A stretch of 37,426 nucleotides of DNA, taken from UHGV virus genome UHGV-0281131. The stretch is one strand, 5' to 3'. The position numbers and the translations under genes were made by a program. Positions 6,389 to 6,840 of this stretch are shown one piece after another (position 1 is the stretch's first letter; each line of letters opens with the position of its first letter). This stretch comes from a virus. The notes below the pieces were generated by a model, which was given only the letters and a program-made list of their open reading frames with translations, was not told the origin of the DNA and made no database searches.

Positions 6389-6447
6389 AACTCCACCTCC
6401 TTACCTGTTTGATAGTTTGAAATTCCATCTTTTAAAAGTTGGAAAAT

Positions 6448-6486
6448 AAAAAAAGGACAACCCTTTTAGGTTGTCCTTTGATTTTT
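6448..6486. terminator. Rho-independent terminator hairpin (bidirectional), GGACAACC-CTTTTA-GGTTGTCC with flanking A and T runs
   Basis: Perfect 8-bp GC-rich stem. T-run on the plus side (TTTGATTTTT), A7 on the other (reads as T7 for minus-strand transcripts). Confidence 0.55.
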
Positions 6487-6495
6487 CTGTAAATG

Positions 6496-6531
6496 GAAAA
6501 AGGCAACTCCAAAAGGTTGCCTGATTTTCTT
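6496..6531. terminator. Second hairpin (AGGCAAC-TCCAAAAG-GTTGCCT) followed by GATTTTCTT
   Basis: 7-bp stem, 8-nt loop, T-rich tail. Part of the hairpin cluster in the 446-bp intergenic island. Confidence 0.4.
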
Positions 6532-6579
6532 AAGATTATTATATCATTAAATACTAAAAAAGTCCATAAAAAGAAAAAG

Positions 6580-6605
6580 GCTGGTATAGTTGCAGCTATA
6601 CCAGC
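6580..6605. other. Perfect 10-bp stem-loop GCTGGTATAG-TTGCAG-CTATACCAGC (no U tract)
   Basis: Seen directly. The loop TTGCAG is identical to the loop of the hairpin at 6811-6828, which suggests a recognised structural motif rather than a simple terminator. Confidence 0.45.
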
Positions 6606-6662
6606 GGTGAAGCACATAAAAAATTCCGTTCTTCTTAGTAATTAAATTATAGCAAAAACAAC

Positions 6663-6691
6663 TAGAAATTTCAAGAAGTTTTTGTTATAAT
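6663..6691 (+). promoter_or_regulatory. Candidate extended -10 promoter (TGtTATAAT) on plus strand inside the intergenic island
   Basis: TGTTATAAT at 6683-6691, with a weak -35 (TAGAAA) 17 bp upstream. Would initiate a ~140-nt plus-strand transcript ending at the 6803-6840 terminator. Confidence 0.3.
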
Positions 6692-6802
6692 GTTTCTAGC
6701 CCACTAAGAAAGGGGGTGGAAATCATAAAGAATTTCGTTCTAAGACTAATAATACTGGTTATTCTGTTTTTCTTAGTAAACAGAGTTGCATTATAATTAG
6801 TC

Positions 6803-6840
6803 AAAAAAGGGGAGTGTTGCAGCACTCCTCCTTTTTTATT
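6803..6840. terminator. Bidirectional rho-independent terminator immediately after the stop of the 1842-aa gene (GGAGTG-TTGCAG-CACTCC, T6 on both sides)
   Basis: AAAAAAGGGGAGTGTTGCAGCACTCCTCCTTTTTTATT. The stem is flanked by A6 upstream and T6 downstream. The stop codon of the minus-strand 1842-aa ORF is at 6836-6838. Confidence 0.6.

Follow-up and report, generated by a model that had tools for sequence, protein, structure and literature searches.

A candidate type I toxin-antitoxin-like cassette beside a conserved terL leader in an apparent Fusobacterium-type phage-plasmid

Introduction

[quoted passage not shown] In par, complementary terminator loops give the first contact between the two RNAs, direct repeats (DRa and DRb) that are transcribed oppositely lie over the toxin initiation region, and a 5′ stem-loop sequesters the Shine-Dalgarno (SD) sequence (PMC7472228). 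The homologues of par keep convergent promoters throughout, and the Fst-Ldr toxins carry a PXXXG (or D/S/TXXXG) motif together with a charged C-terminal tail (PMC7472228). Here we analyse an island of 447 nucleotides (nt) in UHGV virus genome UHGV-0281131, a stretch of 37,426 nt read 5′ to 3′ on one strand and called the window below. It looks like the DNA of a ~37-kb phage-plasmid of the Fusobacterium type from the human gut. Part of this island, a cassette at 6568-6836, looks like a type I toxin-antitoxin-like (addiction) module, a function that we infer from its computed sequence anatomy, complementarity and covariation.

Complementary loops, direct repeats over the initiation region and an SD-sequestering stem-loop are all predicted in this cassette, which also resembles par in its small hydrophobic peptide and in the plasmid-type replicon that bears it. 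The gene arrangement, however, is another. The promoters of the cassette are divergent and stand back-to-back (6646-6691), whereas those of par are convergent; and in place of the one shared bidirectional terminator of par there are two separate terminators (6580-6605 and 6809-6830), whose stems are unrelated and which have the loop alone in common. Moreover, the peptide has neither the PXXXG motif nor the charged C-terminal tail, and the probable host is a Fusobacterium instead of a Firmicute. Because Rfam and Pfam give no match and three defining features of par/Fst fail, we file the cassette outside every named family, as a putative new variant or family among type I toxin-antitoxin-like systems.

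A second group for comparison has a divergent layout. The tisB/istR-1 pair is controlled through a limited complementarity of 21 nt (PMC4147584, PMC2887945), and as of 2010 the divergent, trans-acting tisB/istR-1, shoB/ohsC and zorO/orzO loci had been reported only from E. coli and close relatives (PMC2887945). As in those loci (zorO/orzO corresponds to Z3289/sRNA-1), the small RNA (sRNA) gene of the cassette diverges from the toxin-like gene without overlapping it, the peptide is short and hydrophobic, and the complementarity is limited. ShoB, for instance, has 26 amino acids (aa). The sRNAs of this group, however, pair far upstream in long 5′ untranslated regions (the standby site), whereas the pairing predicted here falls on the SD edge and the start codon (6715-6741), behind a 5′ untranslated region of only ~20 nt; in addition, those loci are chromosomal and have no sequence similarity to the cassette. 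With hok/sok of plasmid R1 the likeness lies in a post-segregational killing cassette carried on a low-copy replicon, and in a structured toxin messenger RNA (mRNA) faced by a short antisense RNA with a strong promoter. In contrast, Sok overlaps hok/mok in cis and acts via a leader open reading frame (ORF), the cassette has no Hok homology, and nothing in it points to activation dependent on 3′ processing. As regards the general features of the type I class, the cassette contains a small (<60 aa) hydrophobic ORF with a ribosome-binding site, its start codon being ambiguous, and an adjacent predicted sRNA gene with extended complementarity to the toxin-like mRNA.

Results

A probable composite island between the giant gene and terL

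The island separates a giant virion gene (an ORF of 1842 aa) from the large terminase gene terL, and all the large genes around it are encoded on the minus strand. With a probability of roughly 0.6, we regard it as a composite structure, in which a clade-specific cassette resembling a type I toxin-antitoxin module has been inserted next to a conserved terL leader. The first-pass annotation of this DNA had listed four stem-loops between the two genes, and all of them were found in place (6452-6479, 6501-6522, 6580-6605 and 6809-6830), with a T-run after each on at least one strand. Its view that the whole island lies inside the late operon has to be qualified: the first two hairpins are part of the conserved leader, and the other two sit in the clade-specific insertion. 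Conservation in more distant relatives is seen for the leader hairpins, which covary, and not for the two hairpins with a TTGCAG loop, which occur only in the cassette clade.

The island is strongly structured as a whole, with a folding energy of -124.3 kcal/mol vs -84.7 +/- 5.7 kcal/mol in shuffled sequences (z = -7.0). Seven terminator-like sites fall within 5900-7300, against 0.6 +/- 1.0 in shuffles, and these seven are most of the nine detected in positions 1-19000; no other strong terminators were found in the 19-kb structural region. The three promoters of the island are among the few with an extended TG in positions 1-19000. Rfam gave no match at gathering thresholds for the whole window, and a permissive Rfam search of 6350-6900 returned only chance-level matches (RatA with 24.5 bits vs a threshold of 49, EF0408_EF0409 with 16.6 vs 440). 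No match was obtained either by blastn of 6300-6900 against phage and plasmid collections.

The loop common to two of the hairpins is real, and extends to 8 nt when the closing pair is included (GTTGCAGC), a string that occurs on the plus strand of the 37.4-kb window only twice, both times in these loops. The shared loop had been taken as a sign of a common processing signal; however, the two hairpins are transcribed from opposite strands, so that in RNA their loops are not identical but perfectly complementary (CUGCAA in the sRNA, UUGCAG in the mRNA). Other features had gone unnoticed at first reading: a stronger minus-strand promoter (6674..6646), two direct repeats, and a third promoter (6566..6538, minus strand).

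Three further ORFs of the island were rejected as genes. Two of them, at 6432..6617 (minus strand, 61 aa) and 6493..6645 (plus strand, 50 aa), cross hairpins and are frameshifted by a 1-nt deletion in the relative L006, and the third (6339..6428, minus strand, 29 aa) loses its start through a 29-nt deletion (6403-6431) in L002 and L006. As a separate observation, a (C/U)UAAGAA motif stands near the 5′ end of all three predicted transcripts, whose copies could have a common origin by duplication or could be a common recognition element.

Anatomy of the cassette

The cassette spans ~270 bp, has terminators at both ends and carries back-to-back promoters that face outward. Both promoters are contained in a 46-bp palindromic (inverted-repeat) block, 6646-6691, and the predicted transcripts diverge from starts ~59 nt apart. 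The extended -10 promoter described earlier on the strand opposite terL is present, and its -35 and -10 hexamers are unchanged in all four alleles of the cassette. Its predicted product, the small mRNA, folds at -44.2 kcal/mol (z = -4.7), and the predicted structure shows a stem-loop at the 5′ end, a hairpin in the interior and the terminator. The 5′ stem-loop is predicted to sequester the SD, the G-run of which has an unpaired probability of <=0.37 in the fold prediction. In allele A2, a U-to-C change at 6705 converts a G.U into a G-C pair and takes the stem-loop from -5.8 to -8.0 kcal/mol; allele A3 has the same base. On the sRNA side, a stem change in the terminator of L001 gives a G.U pair in the minus-strand RNA and A.C on the plus strand.

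The strong ribosome-binding site and the AUA-initiated 23-codon hydrophobic frame noted at first reading are both there, and an in-frame GTG at 6716 extends the frame to 26 aa. The SD, a near-perfect complement of the anti-SD, is found just 5′ of the ORF and is intact in all alleles, as is the reading frame. At 6725, 8 nt past the G-run, alleles W and A3 have the codon AUA, and A1 and A2 have AUU. The peptide contains no Pro or Gly and ends in ...NRVAL, and we presume that it is toxic.

Pairing and allelic variation

The predicted sRNA is complementary through its nt 8-34 to the mRNA at 6715-6741, a stretch that takes in the SD at its 3′ edge, the possible start codons and the opening codons of the frame; a further match joins the first 17 nt of the sRNA to the mRNA at 6761-6777. 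The duplex between the full-length RNAs is computed at -38.9 kcal/mol. When the sRNA 5′ tail was scanned against 7,476 tiles of 55 nt from both genome strands (mean -10.1, standard deviation 3.0 kcal/mol), the best target, besides the antisense strand of the sRNA itself, was the initiation region of the ORF with -30.8 kcal/mol, followed by a runner-up with -21.9 kcal/mol.

Four alleles (W, A1, A2 with a variant A2b, and A3) were found among the 33 cassette loci fetched, a number that includes repeat fetches of the same contigs. In the register that joins mRNA position i with sRNA position 40-i, pairing is retained at 24 of 27 positions in W, 25 of 27 in A1 and 26 of 27 in A2. Five pairs show double changes from one Watson-Crick pair to another, and all transition differences between the repeat copies of one allele run in the direction that gives G.U when the plus strand is mRNA and the minus strand sRNA; the reverse direction, or the opposite strand assignment, would give A.C. 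The changes are also concentrated: the two 27-nt repeats contain 21 of the 31 variable columns in the 270-nt cassette (binomial P = 1.1e-8). The remaining columns lie in or between promoter elements (nine) and in the 5′ stem-loop (one); no variable column falls in the 3′ two-thirds of the ORF or in either terminator, the bidirectional one being unchanged in 33/33 loci. Cognate duplexes range from -30.8 to -38.9 kcal/mol. Duplexes between the W/A3 group, A1 and A2 reach -19.6 to -26.4 kcal/mol, except for the A1 sRNA with the A2 mRNA (-32.8 kcal/mol). The alleles of the pairing segments may define toxin/antitoxin pairs that are orthogonal in part. An sRNA or toxin locus, including a ~140-nt transcript with a hydrophobic ORF, had been offered at first reading as one alternative among several, and it is this one that the pairing and allele evidence favours in silico.

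All loci with the cassette have a terL ~94-98% identical, and the cassette is absent from every more distant relative. Scans with a terL profile of species-representative genomes and JGI metagenomes revealed no cassette outside the ~98% terL clade; the former gave two loci only, neither with a cassette. Searching with the peptide core, back-translated into a degenerate pattern, recovered the same six IMG/VR contigs and no others, and a pattern search for the sRNA terminator recovered those six plus L110, an unrelated coding-region match that was discarded.

A real sRNA-mRNA pair could, on the other hand, serve a different purpose. The peptide could be a small membrane protein of use to the phage, for instance in superinfection exclusion, lysis timing or remodelling of the host membrane, with the sRNA tuning its dose. 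This explanation shares its anatomy with the addiction reading, and the weak start codon would suit a low output. The slot that the cassette occupies may, moreover, gather membrane-protein morons, as L108 holds in it another 52-aa ORF with two transmembrane segments, whose surroundings were not searched for a companion sRNA. Nevertheless, the co-variation of alleles in the pairing segments (P = 1e-8) is what selection for tight and specific neutralisation would be expected to leave, and the element is a Rep/ParA plasmid-prophage. Addiction modules are well established on plasmid elements of that type. We consider a phage-serving membrane protein a rather unlikely account of the locus.

The L108 ORF deserves a separate description. 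It lies at 2629-2787 on the strand opposite terL (MSWTYAWKHMGIGLISFGVGAIFGYKDSKKGIIPMLVIALILGLFLGVDFNR), has two hydrophobic segments and its own TATAAT and SD, and occupies the slot of the cassette, with the giant gene on one side and the leader promoter on the other; neither Pfam nor PADLOC gave a match for it. The slot seems to collect small membrane-protein genes of the opposite strand.

The conserved leader of terL

Between the cassette and terL, the island contains what we regard as an older unit, a minus-strand promoter followed by two hairpins, stem-loop 1 (SL1) and stem-loop 2 (SL2). For comparison we used phages with terL 54-67% identical. In the majority of these, the giant gene is separated from terL by only 110-270 bp, which follow a fixed layout: a -10 box (often extended, TGn), ~12 nt containing AAGARAU, a first hairpin with UUUUUCCAUUU or a close variant, an A-rich spacer, a second hairpin with UUUUUUUAUUU, and the terL SD. 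The -10 box has the same position in all relatives that carry the leader, and AAGARAU is also kept at the leader 5′ end in distant relatives.

In an alignment of 12 distinct leader sequences, 11 of the 20 base pairs show compensatory changes on both sides. The alignment cells able to pair amount to 93.7%, vs 86.5% after shuffling, a value reached in none of 500 shuffles, and pairing falls to 34-62% when the partner columns are slid. A covariance model built on the leader detects a single copy in each genome, in every case immediately 5′ of terL, and no second copy elsewhere; in the window it scores 98.7 bits on the minus (terL-sense) strand vs 54.1 on the plus strand. These strand-specific scores, together with the G.U pairs, point to a function at the level of RNA and not of DNA.

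In L104, L002 and L006 there is no space for a second promoter between SL2 and the terL SD, which in L104 stands directly 3′ of the U-tract. Since no promoter fits there, terL transcripts must cross both U-tailed hairpins. SL1 and SL2 are putative terminators, and, as every terL transcript reads through the two of them, the leader would be an attenuating or antitermination-dependent entry to the block of terL, tail-fibre and lysis genes. A similar logic is found in PR'-tR' (6S RNA) and Q of phage lambda, where a constitutive-looking promoter is immediately followed by intrinsic terminators ahead of a late block with terminase and lysis genes. Unlike lambda, no Q-like gene or qut-type element is recognised in the element, and the leader has two tandem terminators within ~90 nt and occupies a central place in the structural gene block.

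Two observations on this region can be added. The 29-nt deletion of L002 and L006 mentioned above falls between SL2 and the terL SD, and leaves the SD ~15 nt from the U-tract. In relatives, a covarying TTCG-nnn/nnn-CGAA palindrome or hairpin follows the giant-gene stop, just 5′ of the -35 element of the leader promoter, and might act as a weak terminator or as an operator for a protein.

The twin-hairpin unit (6445-6566) could instead be a stand-alone small RNA gene, for a trans regulator or a packaging RNA, and not an attenuating leader. It has a conserved promoter of its own, a single-stranded AAGARAU motif at its 5′ end, two covarying hairpins and a strong terminator tail, and it adjoins terL, while the phage shows no small terminase that can be recognised. 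Yet terL has no separate promoter 3′ of SL2, so the unit is physically the terL 5′ untranslated region, a relation that is especially plain in L104 with its SD right after the U-tract. Two relatives (L107 and L109) manage without the unit, and no Rfam family matches it. On this evidence, we consider an independent RNA gene rather unlikely.

Coordinates and genomic setting

Table 1. Predicted features of the island and other genes of the window. Positions are those of the window unless a relative is named.
Feature	Position	Strand	Details
1842-aa ORF (giant virion gene)	6836..12364	-	
terL (503-aa ORF)	4877..6388	-	phrog_2 7.6e-28; Pfam Terminase_3 exactly at the 23.2-bit cut-off
terL ribosome-binding site	6402..6393	-	AAGGAGGTGG; TTG start at 6388 (feature 6386..6402)
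Leader promoter	6566..6538	-	TGGACT-17-TGaTATAAT
Leader RNA	6445..6537	-	5′ tail uuAAGARAU; SL1 (6522..6501) then UUUUUCCAUUU; SL2 (6479..6452) then UUUUUUUAUUUU
sRNA (predicted ~70 nt)	6568..6639	-	weakly structured ~34-nt 5′ tail and terminator hairpin
sRNA terminator	6580..6605	-	10-bp stem, loop CUGCAA, then CUUUUUCUUUUU
sRNA promoter	6674..6646	-	TTGAAA-17-TGcTATAAT; 11/12 matches, top score in 1-19000
mRNA promoter	6663..6691	+	TAGAAA-17-TGtTATAAT (TGTTATAAT); 10/12 matches, extended -10
mRNA (predicted ~140 nt)	6698..6836	+	start placed from the -10 position
5′ stem-loop	6699..6717	+	GCCCAC pairs with GGGGGU of the ribosome-binding site (predicted SD sequestration)
Shine-Dalgarno	6707..6718	+	AGAAAGGGGGTG; unchanged in all alleles
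Hydrophobic ORF	6716..6796	+	26 aa from GTG (MEIIKNFVLRLIILVILFFLVNRVAL); 23 aa from AUA/AUU at 6725
Bidirectional terminator	6809..6830	both	plus strand ends the small mRNA (loop UUGCAG); minus strand (6828..6811) ends the 1842-aa gene
First direct repeat, copy B	6606-6632	-	sRNA nt 8-34
First direct repeat, copy A	6715-6741	+	mRNA
Second direct repeat	6623-6641 with 6761-6779	+	89% identical; both differences give U.G pairs
(C/U)UAAGAA, leader copy	6531..6520	-	CUUAAGAAAA
(C/U)UAAGAA, sRNA copy	6639..6629	-	ACUAAGAAGAA
(C/U)UAAGAA, mRNA copy	6703-6714	+	CACUAAGAAAGG
TTCG-nnn/nnn-CGAA palindrome	L013 ~2845-2860; L020 ~2805-2825; L089 ~2845-2865; L108 ~2845-2862		in relatives
Small serine resolvase	17377-18072	-	Resolvase 2.1e-20
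HTH_3 repressor	30290-30607	-	
Rep_3 plasmid initiator	33991-35148	+	Rep3_N 1.8e-16, Rep3_C 6.7e-11
ParA ATPase	35159-35917	+	AAA_31 3.6e-35, phrog_164 1.2e-47

The phage-plasmid reading of the element is based on a Rep_3 initiator, a ParA ATPase and a resolvase, encoded with no integrase among the ORFs scanned with PHROGs and/or Pfam. A 221-aa ORF within 33991-36573 (plus strand) is the partner beside Rep_3/ParA. Because the contigs of close relatives have about the same length (37.0-37.8 kb), the window probably represents the whole genome; its content of guanine plus cytosine (GC) is 29.9%, and within it no tRNA genes and no recognisable small terminase were found. The source names on the terL relatives, namely Fusobacterium varium and Fusobacteriaceae, make Fusobacterium the probable host, and human-gut metagenomes are the source of the contigs. 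The genes 3′ of terL encode two collagen-like tail fibres and an endolysin.

The DNA around the cassette is mosaic. The 1842-aa gene, whose product has no PHROG match and a single sub-threshold Pfam match, is only 46-65% identical at the nucleotide level to its counterparts in L001-L005, whose terL and cassette are 87-100% identical to those of the window, and the junction of the mosaic is the bidirectional terminator.

Away from the island, a 130-aa ORF (21849-22241, minus strand) contains the Pfam domain crAss001_48 (1.3e-12), a hint of some remote structural relationship to crAss-like phages. The stretches 27992-29550 and 30640-30740 have few ORFs and several small hairpins and adjoin the HTH repressor; they include near-consensus plus-strand promoters at 28652-28680 (11/12) and 30710-30738 (12/12) and a bidirectional terminator at 29488-29512. 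They are probably an immunity or regulatory region, in which there may be further small RNAs.

Discussion

How the cassette would work

We propose that both RNAs are made, the sRNA being labile. While the element exists as a plasmid-prophage, both promoters would be active, and the mRNA would be kept inactive by the 5′ stem-loop that hides its very strong ribosome-binding site. The sRNA would dock through loop-loop kissing of UUGCAG with CUGCAA, after which its 5′ tail would anneal across the ribosome-site edge, the start codon and the 8-9 initial codons, thereby blocking ribosomes and perhaps exposing the duplex to RNase cleavage. If the element were lost, or displaced by a relative with another allele, the mRNA would be left without its cognate sRNA and the membrane peptide would be made. 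As the element is a plasmid-like prophage that encodes Rep_3, ParA and a resolvase, such a module would most probably serve post-segregational killing, or competition between related phage-plasmids.

Several points weigh against this picture of the island. The orthogonality of the alleles is incomplete, because W and A3 cross-pair (-34.6 and -35.7 kcal/mol) and pairing is also fairly good between the sRNA of A1 and the mRNA of A2. The covariation represents few independent events, as the cassette is known from one clade with four alleles only, and gene conversion between the repeats could contribute to it. Divergence is not unique to the cassette either, given that the DNA around it is mosaic and that the 5′ part of terL is also just 86-92% identical to L001-L005; what is distinctive is the concentration of the within-cassette changes in the pairing segments, and not the total divergence. 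As for the peptide, a canonical start at the proper spacing is absent (at 6716 the GTG runs into the SD, and the codon at a suitable distance is AUA/AUU), and no homologues were found in Pfam, in PADLOC or, by tblastn, in phage records. Regarding the leader, no ORF scanned with PHROGs and/or Pfam matched an antiterminator family, many ORFs being unannotated, and the leader is not universal in the phage group: in L107 and L109 (~2960-3000) the giant gene abuts terL, with neither promoter nor twin hairpins. Finally, all transcription starts are placed from the -10 positions.

A plainer account would have no RNA pair at all: ordinary terminators and an internal promoter would be accompanied by repeats that are relics of duplication, and the small ORF and the second promoter would be chance products of AT-rich DNA. 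In its favour, promoter-like hexamers as a whole are not more frequent than in shuffles of this 30% GC genome, and the U-tracts and 5′ tails of the sRNA and the leader are alike, which fits duplication. Relic repeats, however, would not be expected to show compensatory changes, a bias in the direction of wobble, a target that is unique genome-wide or an 8-nt loop match; three promoters have the rare extended TG, one of them with the top score in 1-19000; and the near-perfect SD stands just ahead of an ORF that is intact in all alleles. Such a coincidence seems to us improbable.

RNase III substrates have ~20 bp. The idea, put forward at first reading, of RNase III-type sites (as the R-sites of T7) that uncouple terminase from core-protein expression, or of a pac/cos packaging-initiation site, has in its favour the location between two large late genes and beside terL, and a 24-26-bp sRNA-mRNA duplex that could itself be an RNase III substrate, but it is very improbable given stems of only 6-12 bp with a U-tract after each (the anatomy of intrinsic terminators, with no stem of ~20 bp), the absence of the TTGCAG hairpins and their cassette from relatives with the same terminase family, and conserved hairpins whose G.U pairs and strand-specific scores bespeak RNA.

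Possible specificity groups and significance

If the cassette is taken as an addiction module, a more far-reaching scenario can be conceived. The pairing segments could be under diversifying selection that yields orthogonal addiction alleles. Among phage-plasmids that circulate together, these would serve as incompatibility or exclusion groups encoded in RNA, given that the sRNA of a closely related competitor could not neutralise the toxin of the resident; and the twin-terminator leader could, at the same time, point to an antitermination switch of an undescribed sort that governs the terminase, tail-fibre and lysis genes in this phage group. We offer this combined scenario tentatively, and consider it doubtful as a whole.

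Each described type I toxin-antitoxin family is essentially confined to one phylum, Proteobacteria or Firmicutes (PMC5367252), and no description of a type I system in Fusobacterium came up in our full-text literature searches. If validated, the cassette would extend the type I class to a new phylum and to a new replicon type, and would show the par-like logic of loop kissing and repeat annealing rebuilt in a different gene arrangement. Its four alleles, with compensatory changes in the pairing segments, are a natural test of RNA-RNA specificity, and Fusobacterium genetics could draw on the cassette and the terL leader as compact candidate parts, for plasmid stabilisation and as tight terminators. 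Both would also bear on the persistence and the lysis timing of elements that are abundant in the human gut.

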